Source: a virus
Lineage: Duplodnaviria > Caudoviricetes
Virus record (IMG/VR): IMGVR_UViG_3300037722_000443
Location: 1-54,680 of that record
Reading direction: 5' to 3' (one strand)
DNA length: 54,680 nt
Shown: positions 8,925 to 17,590 of the stretch, one piece after another
How the letters are laid out: every line of letters starts with the position of its first letter
How positions within the stretch are numbered: position 1 is the first letter of the stretch
Position numbers and translations under genes: made by a program
The notes under the pieces: model-generated
Told to the model about the DNA's origin: nothing
Database searches by the model: none
What the model saw: only the letters and a program-made list of their open reading frames with translations

Positions 8925-9193
8925 TGGGAGTAGTGCCCGCCAAAGAAAACTGGGCAAGCGGTGGGCCGATTCGTGATTTCCGCGGGGGTTGGGCGAAAGT
9001 ATTGTTTGGTCCGAGCGGACTCACCAGATCACAGCGTGTTCATTGGTGGGACGCTGTGAGCGAAAGCGAAGGCATGGCTTTTTACTCATCAGCGTGTGGA
9101 CTGCTTCGTGCAGCGACAGACGGGGTGCCGGTGTTGGCTGGTGGCAGCTGGCCGCGCTGTAAGAATTGCTTGAAAGCAACACGGCAAAAATGA
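8924..9193 (+). CDS. hypothetical Cys-containing protein
   Basis: TAATG-coupled; SACG...CKNC. Confidence 0.55.
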   Translation: MGVVPAKENWASGGPIRDFRGGWAKVLFGPSGLTRSQRVHWWDAVSESEGMAFYSSACGLLRAATDGVPVLAGGSWPRCKNCLKATRQK

Positions 9194-9780
9194 CGGAGGA
9201 ACCCATGGACTCAGCCACCCGCTCGGAAGTTGTATTTGGCCACCTGATGAACTGCCTGCCGGAGCTGGTGAACGAGAGCAATGCGCCCATTTATCGGTAC
9301 GTTGGCAACGTGCTGTGGCGGGTCGGCCCACCCTTTCAGGTATTCATGATGAGCGCCGGGGAGTCCTACCCGCAGTACGTGACGCTCGGTGTTGGCAAGA
9401 ATTTGGAAGAACGGATAAGGCGCCTGATTCGATCCTCGCCGGTGCAAACCAGGGTGGCTGTGTACACGATGGTGCCGAGTTTCAAGCAGGCTTTGGGGCT
9501 GCGCGAGCAACTGATTGCTGAACTGGATGCAGCCTTTCCCGGTGTGCGCGGGCGGGTTGGAAGCTGGAAGGACTGGTACAACCTGGCGGGTGAGGATACC
9601 GAGGGCACCACGGCGCTTGAGCGGGCGACCTTGCTGCTGACCAAGCGCGTGCAGCAAACTCCGTATGCGACCAGGCTGTACAGGTACGAGCCGGCGGTGA
9701 AGCCGGAAGCGATACGCGGGGTCAAAGAGAGCGTGGAAGCCTTGCGAGATACCATTGAGAATGAAGTGGTTTCCCATTGA
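9190..9780 (+). CDS. hypothetical protein, possibly degenerate GIY-YIG/T5orf172-like
   Basis: YVTLGVGKNLEERIRRLIRSSP resembles the KIG.S..PE.R...LQ..SP motif. Confidence 0.45.
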   Translation: MTEEPMDSATRSEVVFGHLMNCLPELVNESNAPIYRYVGNVLWRVGPPFQVFMMSAGESYPQYVTLGVGKNLEERIRRLIRSSPVQTRVAVYTMVPSFKQALGLREQLIAELDAAFPGVRGRVGSWKDWYNLAGEDTEGTTALERATLLLTKRVQQTPYATRLYRYEPAVKPEAIRGVKESVEALRDTIENEVVSH

Positions 9781-9791
9781 ACAAAGGTCTT
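9777..9791 (+). repeat. 15-bp direct repeat, left boundary of the Y RNA-Ro cassette
   Basis: TTGAACAAAGGTCTT, identical to 11530-11544. Confidence 0.9.
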
Positions 9792-9819
9792 GGCAATCGC
9801 TTCCTAAAGTGTGTACAAT
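9790..9819 (+). promoter_or_regulatory. sigma70 promoter for the Y RNA-Ro operon
   Basis: TTGGCA-18-TACAAT; predicted start ~9826-9827 coincides with the 5' end of the first RNA stem. Confidence 0.7.
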
Positions 9820-9826
9820 GGGTGTC

Positions 9827-9892
9827 GCTCGTGGTGAAGAATTCGGATACTTCTCATTGGTTGAAAAACTCCGGTTTCGCTTGTTCCCGAGC
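9827..9892 (+). ncRNA. short Y-RNA-like ncRNA (Ro-binding stem only)
   Basis: GCTCG/CGAGC terminal stem, inner GAATTCGGA/TCCGGTTTC pairing; shares GTGGTG.AG, TACTTC and TCGCTTGTTCCC with the next RNA. Confidence 0.75.
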
Positions 9893-9904
9893 ACTGGTTT
9901 AACG

Positions 9905-10028
9905 TCCGGTGGTGTAGGTAAGAGTTACTTCGCCTCTTAAGCGAGTGGTCGCAGGTTCGAGTCCTGCTCGGCTTTGCCGGTAGCTCAGTGGTTAGAGCAC
10001 TTATTACTCTTGTCGCTTGTTCCCCGGA
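9905..10028 (+). ncRNA. yrlA: YrlA-like Y RNA with circularly permuted tRNA-Lys(CUU) domain
   Basis: TCCGG/CCGGA and AAGAGT/ACTCTT closing stems; inside: anticodon arm, variable loop, T arm GCAGG-TTCGAGT-CCTGC, loop-closed acceptor stem, D arm TAGCTCAGTGGTTAGAGC; directly upstream of the TROVE gene. Confidence 0.88.
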
Positions 10029-10046
10029 TTTATTCAGGAGAATTCC

Positions 10047-11411
10047 ATGCGTACTAACGTCGCAGCAGATTATTCAACCGTCCGCACTCACGAAGGCGCA
10101 CAAGCCTTTCCCCACCTCAAGCCTATTGACCAGCTTCGCCGGTCTGTGTTGGCCTGTATGCTGTGGGAGCGGCAATTCTATGAGGGCGGTCAGGATATTG
10201 CCGACCGGATTGCGGACCTAGCCAAGACGGTTGACCCGGAAGATGTGTCCGCGCTGGCAATCGAGGCCCGGAGCGTTCACAACTTGCGCCACGCCCCCTT
10301 GTTGCTGGCCTGTGGCCTGATTCCGCGAGGCGGAAAGGTGGTGTCAAAAACCATTGAGCAGGTCATTCAGCGACCGGATGAAATGGGCGAACTGATTTCC
10401 CTGTACTGGCGCGATGGCAAAAAGCCGCTGTCCGCGCAGTTGAAAAAGGGATTGACGAAAGTCTTTCGGAAGTTCGATGCCTACCAGTTGGCGAAGTACA
10501 ACCGGGCAGATTCAATCAAGCTGCGCGATGTGATGTTCATGACCCACCCGAAGCCCAAGGATGAGGCGCAGGCCGAGGTCTGGCGCAAGCTGGCCGAGGG
10601 CACGCTGGAATCCCCGGATACTTGGGAGGTTGGACTGTCATCTGGCGCGGACAAGCGGGAAACGTTTACCCGGTTGCTGGCCGAGGGCAAACTGGGCTAC
10701 ATGGCTTTGCTGCGTAACTTGCGGAACATGAGCGAGGCTGGCGTTGACGATGATTTGATTACCAATGCTATCCTGGCCCGCAAGGGCGCGCACCGTGTCC
10801 TGCCGTTCCGGTACGTGGCAGCGGCCCGCGCCTGCCCGCGCCTTGAGCCGGCTTTGGATCAGGCTTTGGTCGCGTCTATTGCCGAGGCAGCGCCGCTGCC
10901 GGGCAAGACGGTGATTGTGGTGGATGTTTCGGTGTCGATGAATGACGGGTTGTCAGCTAGGTCGGAACTGACCCGCCTTGATGCCGCCGCCGCGCTGGCG
11001 TCGGTGGTGCCGGGCGACGTTCGGGTATTTACGTTTTCATTCCGTGGTGCCGGGTATGGCCACCAGGGCTGGCAACATGATGGCAAGACCCCGGTGCTGG
11101 TGGAAGTGCCGCCGAGGCGCGGAATGTCGGGCGTTGATGCCGTCATAAACTCGCAGGAACGGTCGGGCACTTTGTTGGGCCGGGCAGTTACTGAGGCAAA
11201 CGCGATTCCTCATGACCGGCTGATTGTCATCACCGACGAGCAAAGCCATGACACGGTGCCCGATCCGGTGAGCGAGAACGCCTACATGATTAACGTTGCC
11301 TCGAACAAGAACGGTGTTGGCTATGGCAAGTGGACGCACCTGGACGGGTTTTCCGAGGCGGTAATCAAGTGGATTCAGGCTTATGAAGCGAATCAACATT
11401 CACCTGCCTGA
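10047..11411 (+). CDS. rsr: Ro60/Rsr TROVE-domain RNA-binding protein with C-terminal vWA domain
   Basis: LWERQFYE, FDAYQLAKYNR, KLRDVMFMTHPKP, DTWEVGLS, LGYMALLRNLRN; MIDAS DVSVSM, ITDEQ; AGGAG RBS before ATG 10047. Confidence 0.95.
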   Translation: MRTNVAADYSTVRTHEGAQAFPHLKPIDQLRRSVLACMLWERQFYEGGQDIADRIADLAKTVDPEDVSALAIEARSVHNLRHAPLLLACGLIPRGGKVVSKTIEQVIQRPDEMGELISLYWRDGKKPLSAQLKKGLTKVFRKFDAYQLAKYNRADSIKLRDVMFMTHPKPKDEAQAEVWRKLAEGTLESPDTWEVGLSSGADKRETFTRLLAEGKLGYMALLRNLRNMSEAGVDDDLITNAILARKGAHRVLPFRYVAAARACPRLEPALDQALVASIAEAAPLPGKTVIVVDVSVSMNDGLSARSELTRLDAAAALASVVPGDVRVFTFSFRGAGYGHQGWQHDGKTPVLVEVPPRRGMSGVDAVINSQERSGTLLGRAVTEANAIPHDRLIVITDEQSHDTVPDPVSENAYMINVASNKNGVGYGKWTHLDGFSEAVIKWIQAYEANQHSPA

Positions 11412-11517
11412 GCCTATGCTCAAAAGGGTGCGTGCTGAGGTAAAAAAGACAGGCCTGTCTATCGCCGAGATCATTCGCAGGGCGCTGGACATGTATCTCG
11501 AAAAGCGCGGCAAATAG
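11383..11517 (+). CDS. 44-aa ribbon-helix-helix (CopG/Arc-like) DNA-binding protein, absent from the ORF track
   Basis: MKRINIHLPEPMLKRVRAEVKKTGLSIAEIIRRALDMYLEKRGK; overlaps the TROVE stop. Confidence 0.85.
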   Translation: MKRINIHLPEPMLKRVRAEVKKTGLSIAEIIRRALDMYLEKRGK

Positions 11518-11529
11518 ACACAGCCAGCG

Positions 11530-11544
11530 TTGAACAAAGGTCTT
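11530..11544 (+). repeat. 15-bp direct repeat, right boundary of the Y RNA-Ro cassette
   Basis: TTGAACAAAGGTCTT, identical to 9777-9791. Confidence 0.9.
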
Positions 11545-11571
11545 TACTGGAGGGGTACCCCCTGTTAATAT
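11543..11571 (+). promoter_or_regulatory. pR'-like late promoter
   Basis: TTTACT-17-TAATAT with TG extension; followed by a short leader, a terminator and lysis genes. Confidence 0.65.
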
Positions 11572-11598
11572 CCATACTAAGCAAAGTTGTCACCAATG

Positions 11599-11620
11599 AA
11601 CCGCCTTCGGGCGGTTTTTT
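11599..11620 (+). terminator. tR'-like intrinsic terminator
   Basis: AACCGCC-TTCG-GGCGGTTTTTT. Confidence 0.85.
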
Positions 11621-11642
11621 GCGTCTGGAGGCGGGGTTCCGA

Positions 11643-11978
11643 ATGAGCAAACTCATGGATGGGCTGACAGCCTGGCAGAAGGTAGCGGCTGCGGTGGTGA
11701 TTACGGCGGCCCTGGTTGGCGGCGGTAAGACCGGGATCGAGGCATGGCTGATGCCGAGAGCCGAGGCGTCGCAGGCGATCGAGGAACTGATCTGGCGCGA
11801 ACTCCGGGATGTGCGCGAGCAGCTCAGGAAACAGAAAATCTACCGGGCGCAGGTGGCGTCAGACGAAAAAATAAATCAGTCACAGAAAACCATCCTGCTG
11901 GCTGAAATTGAGGTCGAGCTTGAGGAACTGGCGAAAGAAGAAGCCTGCCTGGAGTCCGGCCGACTGAGATGCAATTAA
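11643..11978 (+). CDS. membrane-anchored coiled-coil protein
   Basis: N-terminal hydrophobic helix; GGAGG upstream. Confidence 0.6.
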   Translation: MSKLMDGLTAWQKVAAAVVITAALVGGGKTGIEAWLMPRAEASQAIEELIWRELRDVREQLRKQKIYRAQVASDEKINQSQKTILLAEIEVELEELAKEEACLESGRLRCN

Positions 11979-12056
11979 CCGTGTCGCAACGGAGGCCGCT
12001 GAAGATCGCGGGCATATATGGAAACTGCGGAATGCGTATTTGCGAGGGGTCACAGA

Positions 12057-13092: not shown

Positions 13093-13329
13093 ATGCTGAT
13101 CGAATTCCTGGTATCCAAGTTCTTTTTCCTGGTAATCCTTGCAGCCGCATTTGGCGCGTATGTGGGCATGACCAGATTTCACAATTGGAGCATCGGCCTT
13201 GGGTGGAGTATCGACATCTGGCCAGCGATCAAAAAAGACCCGCGAGCGGTGGCGGATTATTTCCGCACGGTGCGGCTTGGCTTTTGTATCATCATTGGCC
13301 TGGCACTCCTCGCAGGCGCAATTTCCTGA
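13093..13329 (+). CDS. putative holin
   Basis: 78 aa, two TM segments, overlaps the endolysin. Confidence 0.6.
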   Translation: MLIEFLVSKFFFLVILAAAFGAYVGMTRFHNWSIGLGWSIDIWPAIKKDPRAVADYFRTVRLGFCIIIGLALLAGAIS

Positions 13330-13813
13330 CCAGTACGACCAGTGGTTCCGCGAGACCGCGATCCGCTATCTGTACACCTACCTGCCGGATGACGATTGGC
13401 GCTGGTGGAAGGCGCAGTGCTATCAAGAGTCACGCCTGAAGCCGGATGCAGTGAGCCCGGCCGGGGCGGTCGGGCTGTGCCAACTGATCTCTGGTGCGGC
13501 TCAGGATGCCGGACTAGATCCTGAATTGCGCACGGATGCCCGGAGAAACATCAAGGCGGGCGCGTGGATACTGCGCCGCAATTTGCGGGTATGGTGGCGC
13601 CGGGATGAGCGGCTGGAGCATCTCAAGCTGGGCTGGGCCGGTTACAACGCCGGGGCCGGGCACATCATCAAGGCACAGTCATTGTGCGATGCTGCGCCCT
13701 TGTGGGACGGTATCAGTCAATGCCTGCAATGTGTCACCGGGCCGAAAAATAGCGCTGAAACTATCGGCTACGTTCGGCTAATCCAGCGTTGGTACGCAGC
13801 CCTTGCAGAATGA
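13199..13813 (+). CDS. SLT lytic transglycosylase endolysin (start uncertain)
   Basis: QESRLKPDAVSPAGAVGLCQL, GYNAGAG, ETIGYV motifs. Confidence 0.9.
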   Translation: MGGVSTSGQRSKKTRERWRIISARCGLAFVSSLAWHSSQAQFPDQYDQWFRETAIRYLYTYLPDDDWRWWKAQCYQESRLKPDAVSPAGAVGLCQLISGAAQDAGLDPELRTDARRNIKAGAWILRRNLRVWWRRDERLEHLKLGWAGYNAGAGHIIKAQSLCDAAPLWDGISQCLQCVTGPKNSAETIGYVRLIQRWYAALAE

Positions 13814-17514: not shown

Positions 17515-17590
17515 CGCAGGGTAGATCAATTGGCAGATCGTCGGATTCATATTCCGAAGGTTGCCGGTTCAAGTCCGGCCCCTGCAACCA
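17515..17590 (+). tRNA. initiator-type tRNA-fMet (CAT) with variant anticodon arm
   Basis: 76-nt cloverleaf, C1:A72 mismatch, A11-U24, CAT at 17548-17550, TTCAAGT T loop, encoded ACCA. Confidence 0.92.

Follow-up and report, generated by a model that had tools for sequence, protein, structure and literature searches.

The window analysed here is the whole of viral record IMGVR_UViG_3300037722_000443 (Caudoviricetes), which is complete, carries terminal repeats and is 54,680 bases long. Directly upstream of its gene for a Ro60 orthologue (rsr) lies a YrlA-type Y RNA (9905-10028, plus strand). We propose, as the reading that the sequences make probable, that this RNA is a YrlA-class mimic of the full tRNA body, permuted in its arm order, which keeps a complete anticodon arm whose generic loop design has been selected. 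The comparisons reported below demonstrate the sequence, the conserved secondary structure and the loop profile of this hairpin. The original prediction, made from the letters of the window alone, had described a circularly permuted tRNA-Lys(CUU) with a complete anticodon hairpin. The permuted look-alike and its anticodon-type hairpin were borne out, both by the arms read in the window and by the geometry peak and covariation found in relatives; the lysine identity was not.

Every arm was found where the original prediction had placed it. The 5' strand of the outer stem (9905-9919), which pairs through 9905-9909 with 10024-10028, contains GGUGUAG (9911-9917) and is presumed to form the Ro60-binding side. 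This 5' block aligns with the GUGCGAAGG and GUGCGCAGG blocks of bacterial YrlAs, and GGUGUAG departs at two of its positions from the GNCGAAN0-1G motif of PMC4201824. The 5' strand of a connector stem (9920-9928) ends in GUUAC, a YUAY motif, and pairs over 9920-9927 with 10004-10011, with one U.U. It leads into the anticodon-arm look-alike UUCGC-CUCUUAA-GCGAG (9929-9945), whose stem (9929-9933 with 9941-9945) closes a 7-nt loop (9934-9940) with C32, U33, A37 and A38 and with CUU at 9936-9938. A variable loop of class I type, UGGUC (9946-9950, positions 44-48), connects the hairpin to the T arm GCAGG-UUCGAGU-CCUGC (9951-9967). The acceptor-like stem UCGGC-UUU-GCCGG (9968-9980) has 5 bp closed by UUU, with no free end and no CCA. 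It is followed by UA, the equivalent of U8-A9 (9981-9982), and by the D arm GCUC-AGUGGUUA-GAGC (9983-9998). Between the D stem and the connector stem is a linker of 5 nt (9999-10003), where a tRNA has a single nucleotide (position 26). The 3' strands of both connector and outer stem (10004-10028) come last; they pair with the 5' strands and include CGCUUGUUCC (10014-10023).

The T arm, the closed acceptor-like stem, UA and the D arm thus stand in YrlA order and carry tRNA-type invariant bases. Of the features of a canonical tRNA, the cloverleaf in native order and a 7-bp acceptor stem with a free 3' end are absent, and an anticodon arm (5 bp, 7-nt loop, U33, purine 37) with a variable loop of 4-5 nt is present. 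Folding of the single sequence returned a five-way junction containing the hairpin (-45.2 kcal/mol, z -1.98, with 7 of 200 shuffled sequences as good).

Geometry and covariation of the hairpin in related RNAs

Relatives were collected from three sources: 24 viral loci encoding Rsr relatives (42-51% identity), viral contigs scanned for a pattern in which GTTAC, the T loop and TAGCTCA are fixed and 8-38 bases at the hairpin site are free, and bacterial and archaeal genomes scanned for the same pattern. The pattern demands no hairpin, and all counts from both scans, and from the sets drawn from them, are counts among the matches listed. The viral set, with the Rsr loci and the window included, comprised 119 unique RNAs; 20 in which the acceptor segment was not a closed hairpin were dropped, many of which look like tandem tRNA genes, and 99 were kept. 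The bacterial set comprised 121 unique RNAs, 98 of them with a closed acceptor, and the phage and bacterial sets pooled gave 196 YrlA-like RNAs with a closed acceptor, sampled without regard to the hairpin. Since the Rfam YrlA model proved too insensitive as a hairpin-neutral detector (13 of the 24 Rsr loci were scanned, with matches in 5, all under the cut-off), we built a covariance model of our own, R1; its training rows bear the hairpin, and it is biased towards such RNAs. Of the 24 Rsr loci, 20 gave full-length matches to R1. The Y RNA of the window scores 118.6 bits with R1, a value that is not independent because the window is one of the training rows.

We scored every combination of a gap of 2-8 nt to the T stem and a loop of 3-11 nt. 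In the viral set, the cell with a gap of 5 and a loop of 7 held 29 of the 99 RNAs with at least four contiguous pairs; the counts in the remaining cells ranged from 0-16, and several of the fuller cells represent other registers of this helix. The bacterial set peaked at the same cell (24/98), and a stem of 5 bp, a loop of 7 nt and then 5 nt to the T stem is the dominant geometry of the family over the 196 RNAs. A lenient rule (at least three contiguous pairs, gap 4-5) was satisfied by 70 of the 99 viral RNAs, a few evident false fits included. By eye, an anticodon-like hairpin is present in 15 of the 24 Rsr loci, in two of them with only three pairs.

Covariation was measured in a 77-row MAFFT alignment whose rows were not selected for pairing, and which mis-registers the 19-21-nt class. 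The hairpin helix was paired in 66.8% of cells, and four of its five pairs showed changes on both sides. Covariation over the hairpin and T arm was 0.525 compared to 0.173 in shuffled alignments (0/500 as high), and fell to 0.08-0.17 when the register was slid. RNAalifold on 47 full-length RNAs returned a connector stem, the hairpin with its 7-nt loop, the T arm, the acceptor and the D arm around a five-way junction, a five-helix model that was 94.4% paired in these rows, which had been chosen for a paired hairpin. In the same 47 rows the T arm was paired in 99.6% of cells, all five pairs of the acceptor-like stem covaried, and the connector stem was paired in 85.3% of cells with double changes in six of seven pairs. 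The D stem GCUC/GAGC is invariant in 47/47 rows, yet TAGCTCA is part of the search pattern; GUUAC, near-invariant among the relatives, is likewise part of it. Among 53 RNAs that pass a strict rule of at least four pairs, the two sides of individual hairpin pairs are exact mirrors of each other: G33/C18/U2 against C33/G18/A2 at pair 30-40, and A33/C9/G6/U5 against U33/G9/C6/A5 at pair 31-39. A competing pairing implied by the Rfam alignment, AAGCGA (9939-9944) with UCGCUU (10014-10019), was paired in 55.8% of cells, and 153 of 500 shuffles were as good. The geometry peak, the covariation and the failure of this competing pairing confirm that the hairpin is more than a chance fit.

YrlA copies that have no 5' hairpin (L007:1049-1205, L019:960-1113, L028, L253 and others) often carry a hairpin with a GNRA-type tetraloop between the D arm and the connector stem, for example GCC-GAAA-GGC. 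This fits a need for some helix at that site. Tandem R1 matches occur upstream of the gene for the TROVE-domain protein in Caulobacter phage CcrColossus (five, L266:1449-2429) and Xanthomonas phage Tenjo (three, L265:1851-2469), where copies with and without the hairpin stand side by side. Downstream of the rsr relative at L023 is a tRNA-like RNA (L023:2952-3111) with a T arm, a closed acceptor and a D arm, in which CCGG-CUCAUAA-CCGG comes after the D arm as an anticodon-type arm in natural tRNA order; the break point differs. Just after another rsr relative (L015:2758-2853), a plant microRNA precursor model matched both strands at about 42 bits, under its cut-off, presumably owing to a long palindromic hairpin.

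An anticodon-type loop with a varying triplet

U33 is found in all 53 strict RNAs, C32 in 45, a purine at position 37 in 51 and A38 in 49. The segment after the hairpin reads R-G-G-U-Y, with G45 in 46 RNAs, G46 in 53, U47 in 49 and a pyrimidine at 48 in 53, and entropy over the whole stretch compared is highest at positions 34 and 35. We also compared 60 strict hairpins with 936 real tRNAs of the same loci. U33 was present in 59/60 hairpins (0.90 of the tRNAs), C32 in 0.82 (0.64), a purine at 37 in 0.93 (0.93) and A38 in 0.88 (0.73), and A34 was rare in both. The loop profile is therefore as tRNA-like as that of the real tRNAs of the same loci, or more so. The original prediction had named a conserved 7-nt loop of the form C/U-U-NNN-A-A with varying triplets as the pattern to look for in homologues, and this is what was found.

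The triplet itself is not conserved. Among the 53 strict RNAs, the stem UUCGA/UCGAG carries nine different loops, and the stem of the window, UUCGC/GCGAG, carries four, which elsewhere include ACG, GTG and TGT. CUU was found in 3 of the 60 strict hairpins and at none of the 15 hairpin-bearing Rsr-linked loci, where TTG, TTT, ATG, ACG, ACT, CGT, GTT, ATT, GTG, TGT, TAT and TAC were read. These counts do not support a lysine identity. The comparison indicates that selection keeps C32, U33, a purine at 37, A38 and mostly U36-A37 but not the triplet, so that the CUU of the window would have no 'lysine' meaning.

The step from 36 to 37 obeys the rule of tRNAs: A37 follows U36 in every case, and G or A follows G36. 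Against the real tRNAs, the strict hairpins are enriched in U36-A37-A38 (35/60 compared to 0.26), in U36AAU39 (23/60 compared to 0.08) and in Lys, Thr and Asn triplets (24/60 compared to 0.15), and are poor in A36-A37 (1/60 compared to 0.20) and C36 (4/60 compared to 0.21); Fisher tests on these compositions do not account for the relatedness of the RNAs. The published determinants of N6-threonylcarbamoyladenosine at position 37 (t6A37) are C/A32-N33-N34-N35-U36-A37-A38 together with G10-C25 and C11-G24, with 34 and 35 free (PMC8887486). The family consensus, C32-U33-N-N-U36-A37-A38 with the invariant GCUC/GAGC D stem, coincides with them, and the window matches them in sequence at C9934, U9938, A9939, A9940, G9983-C9998 and C9984-G9997.

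Detection and annotation of hairpin-type Y RNAs

Rfam at its gathering scores annotated only a tRNA-Met over the window. The YrlA model (RF02553) has no states for the hairpin, and gave the Y RNA 42.1 bits (E 3.3e-8), under its gathering score of 69. Its scores for other hairpin-type YrlAs were similar, 37-45 bits in five phage loci (L003, L006, L007, L008 and L013) out of the 13 scanned and 38.8-45.6 bits for the best match in each of three bacterial genomes (G001-G003), again under 69. A large subclass of YrlAs that fall short of this score would therefore escape standard annotation. The Rfam tRNA model aligned the hairpin to its anticodon arm with the D arm deleted (22.5 bits, E 0.02, under the cut-off of 29), and R1 positions 38-76, which cover the hairpin, the variable loop and the T arm, matched real tRNAs, including the tRNA-Met of the window.

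ARAGORN made no tRNA call at the Y RNA in the native window, where its only call was this tRNA-Met (CAU; 17515-17590, plus strand), the sole canonical tRNA of the phage. After the arms were re-joined in tRNA order, 103 of 120 RNAs were called as tRNAs, and the window RNA became tRNA-Lys(ctt). As evidence for the hairpin this approach was rejected: 45/45 re-joined sequences were called when intact and 40/45 when the hairpin was shuffled. The claim that re-joining the D arm to the anticodon arm rebuilds a tRNA-Lys is thus correct as to the call obtained, and loses its force as to what the call says of the hairpin.

Similar calls arise in native order. The Tenjo Y RNA was called by ARAGORN as tRNA-Asn(gtt) (L265:2324-2394), and the GenBank record of CcrColossus (JX100810.1) lists a tRNA-Gln (L266:1637-1704) inside a Y RNA (R1 match 1621-1807), its 'anticodon' being the CUG of the hairpin with loop AUCUGGA. 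Within the 196 native spans, which include 40-50 nt of flanking sequence, ARAGORN made 29 tRNA calls. Hairpin-type Y RNAs have probably been mis-annotated as tRNAs elsewhere too.

A proposed permuted full-body tRNA mimic and the evidence against it

We suggest that the effector module of this RNA is a whole tRNA body in permuted order, and that the RNA would act as the non-coding partner of the Ro60 encoded downstream. The 3' strand of the hairpin would be the equivalent of positions 39-43; it pairs back through the 7-nt loop, and in Salmonella YrlA the partner of the corresponding strand is the one that follows the D arm. Because of this equivalence, the stem that leads to Ro60 would enter the tRNA body at 26/27, and not through the anticodon loop, where the permutation break of Salmonella YrlA lies. 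The arm may then stack under the D stem and complete the L shape. Enzymes that recognise anticodon loops regardless of 34 and 35 could take the loop as a substrate or a look-alike. The matching determinants make the t6A37 machinery the first candidate for such a reader, with position 37 probably modified. In this way Ro60 would bring a mimic of the full tRNA body, one that cannot be charged, to a partner that binds tRNA.

Several observations weigh against this reading. Over the pooled sample, the strict test was passed by just 63 of the 196 RNAs and the lenient one by 120, some false fits included, and sampling hinges on exact matches to the GTTAC, T-loop and TAGCTCA motifs. Rows of the 47-row and 53-60-row sets were selected for a paired hairpin, so that the pairing percentages of these sets are circular, and the pair types and loop profile alone are informative. 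The single-sequence fold of the window RNA is only marginally better than that of shuffled sequences, and the case for the hairpin consequently rests on the comparison with relatives. The re-joined tRNA-Lys call says little, since shuffled hairpins are still called. The Fisher tests are blind to relatedness, and drift from an ancestral GUU loop could account for the excess of U36 (the modal bases at 34-36 are G, U and U). The t6A determinants were obtained with eukaryotic and mitochondrial enzymes, some of which also need a CCA end (PMC8887486). Finally, in the solved Salmonella YrlA the Ro-linked stem is itself stacked under the D stem (10.1101/312249).

Alternative explanations for the hairpin

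The hairpin has previously been drawn as a 'V' stem-loop, a mimic of the variable arm of class II tRNAs with YUAY at the start of the V loop (PMC4201824), which would make the Ro-linked stem the equivalent of the anticodon stem. That stem does stack as an anticodon stem in the Salmonella crystal structure (10.1101/312249), but since Salmonella YrlA has no such hairpin the structure is no test of the assignment. The 7-nt loop with U33, a purine at 37 and A38, and the linker of 5-6 nt between the D stem and the Ro-linked stem, speak against it. Class II variable arms have short loops of 3-5 nt and are spaced by about 2 nt from the anticodon stem on their 5' side and by about 1 nt from the T stem on their 3' side; the window hairpin departs from this geometry, with a 7-nt loop, 0-1 nt before it and the 5 nt of R-G-G-U-Y after it. 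Judged on position and loop profile, an anticodon arm appears to be the better fit, and we consider a variable arm unlikely. It is equally improbable, in our view, that the hairpin is a relic of an ancestral tRNA or tRNA dimer, kept solely to stabilise the fold and with a loop that nothing reads. A dimeric-tRNA origin has been modelled (quoted in 10.1101/312249), and YrlAs without the hairpin exist, often with a plain tetraloop hairpin after the D arm. However, across phyla U33, C32, A38, purine 37 and G46 are maintained at levels that equal or exceed those of real tRNAs while 34 and 35 drift, and a helix needed for stacking only would accept any stable loop, as the tetraloop variants show. 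A mimic specific for tRNA-Lys, engaging lysyl-tRNA synthetase (LysRS) or Lys-specific nucleases, would account for CUCUUAA, the textbook tRNA-Lys(CUU) loop, and for the re-joined ARAGORN call. The rarity of CUU among the strict hairpins, the other triplets at the Rsr-linked loci and on the very stem of the window, and the lack of an acceptor end for LysRS make it very unlikely. We give even less credence to a true permuted tRNA gene, whose transcript would be cut and re-joined into a working tRNA-Lys. The YrlA of Mycobacterium smegmatis undergoes cleavage by RNase P and CCA addition (PMC4201824), processing has been raised as a possibility (10.1101/312249), and at least 7 contiguous acceptor pairs are present in 109 of the 196 family members. 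The window, however, has a 5-bp acceptor closed by UUU with neither discriminator nor CCA, many relatives close the acceptor with stable tetraloops, and the Ro-type stems are conserved.

A further possibility concerns what would read the loop. Hairpin-type YrlAs might be Ro60-mounted, t6A-bearing baits, decoys or sensors that bind, or are nicked by, anticodon-arm nucleases or toxins of the PrrC, AriB, colicin or VapC types, with a triplet that changes fast in an arms race. A role for YrlA as competitor against an anticodon nuclease has been suggested previously (PMC7790460). The excess of U36-A37-A38, of U36AAU39 and of Lys, Thr and Asn triplets resembles the targets of AriB, Lys UUU, Thr UGU, Asn GUU and Thr CGU, all of them U36AAU39 (PMC12409363), and t6A is a positive determinant for PrrC, according to the title of a paper cited there. 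The original prediction had counted AriB among the nucleases that cut the anticodon loop; it cuts between 40 and 41, in the anticodon stem (PMC12409363). That 34 and 35 vary among RNAs with identical stems would also agree with such a conflict. On the other side, drift from GUU would give the same triplet spectrum, the arm of the window reads UAAG and not UAAU, and Salmonella YrlA, which has no such loop, is described as not cut by the DNA-damage nuclease (PMC7790460). Chromosomal bacterial YrlAs have the hairpin as often as those of phages do, so a phage-only counter-defence cannot be the general explanation, and no defence or RNA-repair genes were found among the 10 ORFs scanned beside rsr, six of which had no family match. 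We regard a bait of this kind as a rather unlikely, though conceivable, use of the permuted mimic. If it were true, phages would use the RNA to blunt tRNA-directed defence and bacteria to report attack on tRNAs, and this conflict would have left its trace in the free-running 34 and 35 and in the surplus of U36-A37-A38(-U39).

Genome setting

The rsr gene (10047-11411, plus strand) encodes 454 amino acids with a TROVE domain (PF05731, E 5.6e-16) and lies on the same strand as the Y RNA, which ends 19 nt upstream of it (end at 10028). By Rsr, the closest cultured relatives are Xanthomonas phages such as Tenjo (60.7% identity), and CcrColossus shows 53.4%; a megablast search of 9000-12000 against cultured phages gave no match. 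A promoter-like site, TTGGCA-18-TACAAT (9790-9819, plus strand; 10/12 consensus matches, by consensus only), lies upstream of rsr and of both Y RNA-like elements, and no terminator-like site was found on either strand between 9600 and 11700. The Y RNA and rsr are probably made from the same transcript.

The second of these elements is a tentative small Y RNA-like hairpin (about 9826-9896, plus strand) that follows the promoter-like site. It has no tRNA-like module, and resembles Salmonella YrlB in this. Read by eye, it shares with the YrlA-type RNA a GGUGAAG-like 5' motif (GGUGAAG in the small element itself) and the CGCUUGUUCC 3' motif. Its fold was no better than that of shuffled sequences (z -0.27, 70/200 as good), and R1 found no match in it.

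Four of the 10 neighbouring open reading frames (ORFs) scanned had a family match. DUF1367, a RecA-dependent nuclease and DUF1064, which are nin-region-like genes, lie upstream of rsr, and an SLT transglycosylase (13199-13813) lies downstream. In Tenjo, rsr stands directly before a lysozyme gene, and in CcrColossus it stands beside endolysin, holin and spanin genes; rsr thus adjoins lysis genes.

Significance

YrlA RNAs are the best-studied bacterial tRNA mimics, and the sole structure solved lacks an anticodon loop. Should most YrlAs bear a true look-alike of the anticodon arm with t6A37 determinants, the search for their partner would widen from readers of the tRNA elbow to readers of the anticodon loop. 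Modification of A37 and cleavage by anticodon nucleases would become cheaply testable, and the origin of YrlA from a tRNA dimer would gain a concrete relic. In practical terms, the Rfam model under-detects the hairpin type, and tRNA finders and at least one GenBank record call such RNAs tRNAs.

Comparison with known systems

The YrlA family and its V stem-loop are known; the reading of the V stem-loop as an anticodon arm appears to be new. Chen et al. (2014, PMC4201824) equated a fourth stem-loop of YrlAs, conserved to a lesser degree, with the tRNA variable arm. The text of that paper uses 'anticodon' three times, each time for Deinococcus Yrn1. No statement of the V stem-loop as an anticodon arm was found in the literature searched; the figures and supplements of PMC4201824, and three reviews outside the search, may discuss it. 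By position, after YUAY and before the T arm, the window hairpin is the same element as the V stem-loop described for the YrlAs of P. fulva, R. etli, M. smegmatis and mycobacteriophage ET08 (compared by description), and it is the loop length, the loop profile and the flanking 5-nt RGGUY of the window that argue for an anticodon arm.

The YrlA of Salmonella Typhimurium (RF02553; PDB 6CU1 as named in 10.1101/312249) also lies beside rsr on the same strand, with a conserved YUAY, and its T arm, closed acceptor stem, UA and D arm are permuted in the same way as those of the window RNA. Wang et al. (2018, 10.1101/312249), who also quote the model of a tRNA-dimer origin, state that it 'lacks the anticodon loop'. 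In the Rfam consensus the stem to the Ro60 site continues directly from the D stem, which makes a four-way junction, and the strand before a 4-nt variable loop pairs with the strand right after the D stem. In the window RNA and its relatives, the strand before a 5-nt variable loop is instead the 3' strand of the hairpin, with 0-1 nt before the hairpin and a linker of 5-6 nt after the D stem; the extra 17-nt hairpin gives a five-way junction.

The YrlAs of Tenjo and CcrColossus are likewise upstream of rsr and have the same hairpin geometry, with UUCGA-CUGUUAA-UCGAG in both and UUCGC-AUCUGGA-GCGGG in CcrColossus. They differ in their triplets (GUU and CUG) and in the presence of several tandem copies (3 and 5 model matches), some without the hairpin. 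Yrn1 of Deinococcus radiodurans, as described in PMC4201824, is also a Y RNA bound by Ro60; it has a T arm and what may be an 'anticodon arm', with a stem of 5 bp. Its loop is 6 nt long, however, its arms follow another order, and it was judged to have evolved separately. The permuted tRNA genes of red algae and an archaeon (cited in 10.1101/312249) share an acceptor that starts as a closed loop and ends that lie elsewhere in the cloverleaf; they are spliced into working tRNAs, of which the window RNA, with its 5-bp acceptor and no CCA, gives no sign. Phage T5 variants of tRNA-Lys, -Thr and -Asn that neutralise PARIS (PMC12409363) are phage-encoded and have anticodon arms of the same U36-A37-A38 class. 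The T5 variants are chargeable and replace the cleaved host tRNAs, whereas the window RNA is unchargeable and could act by binding only.

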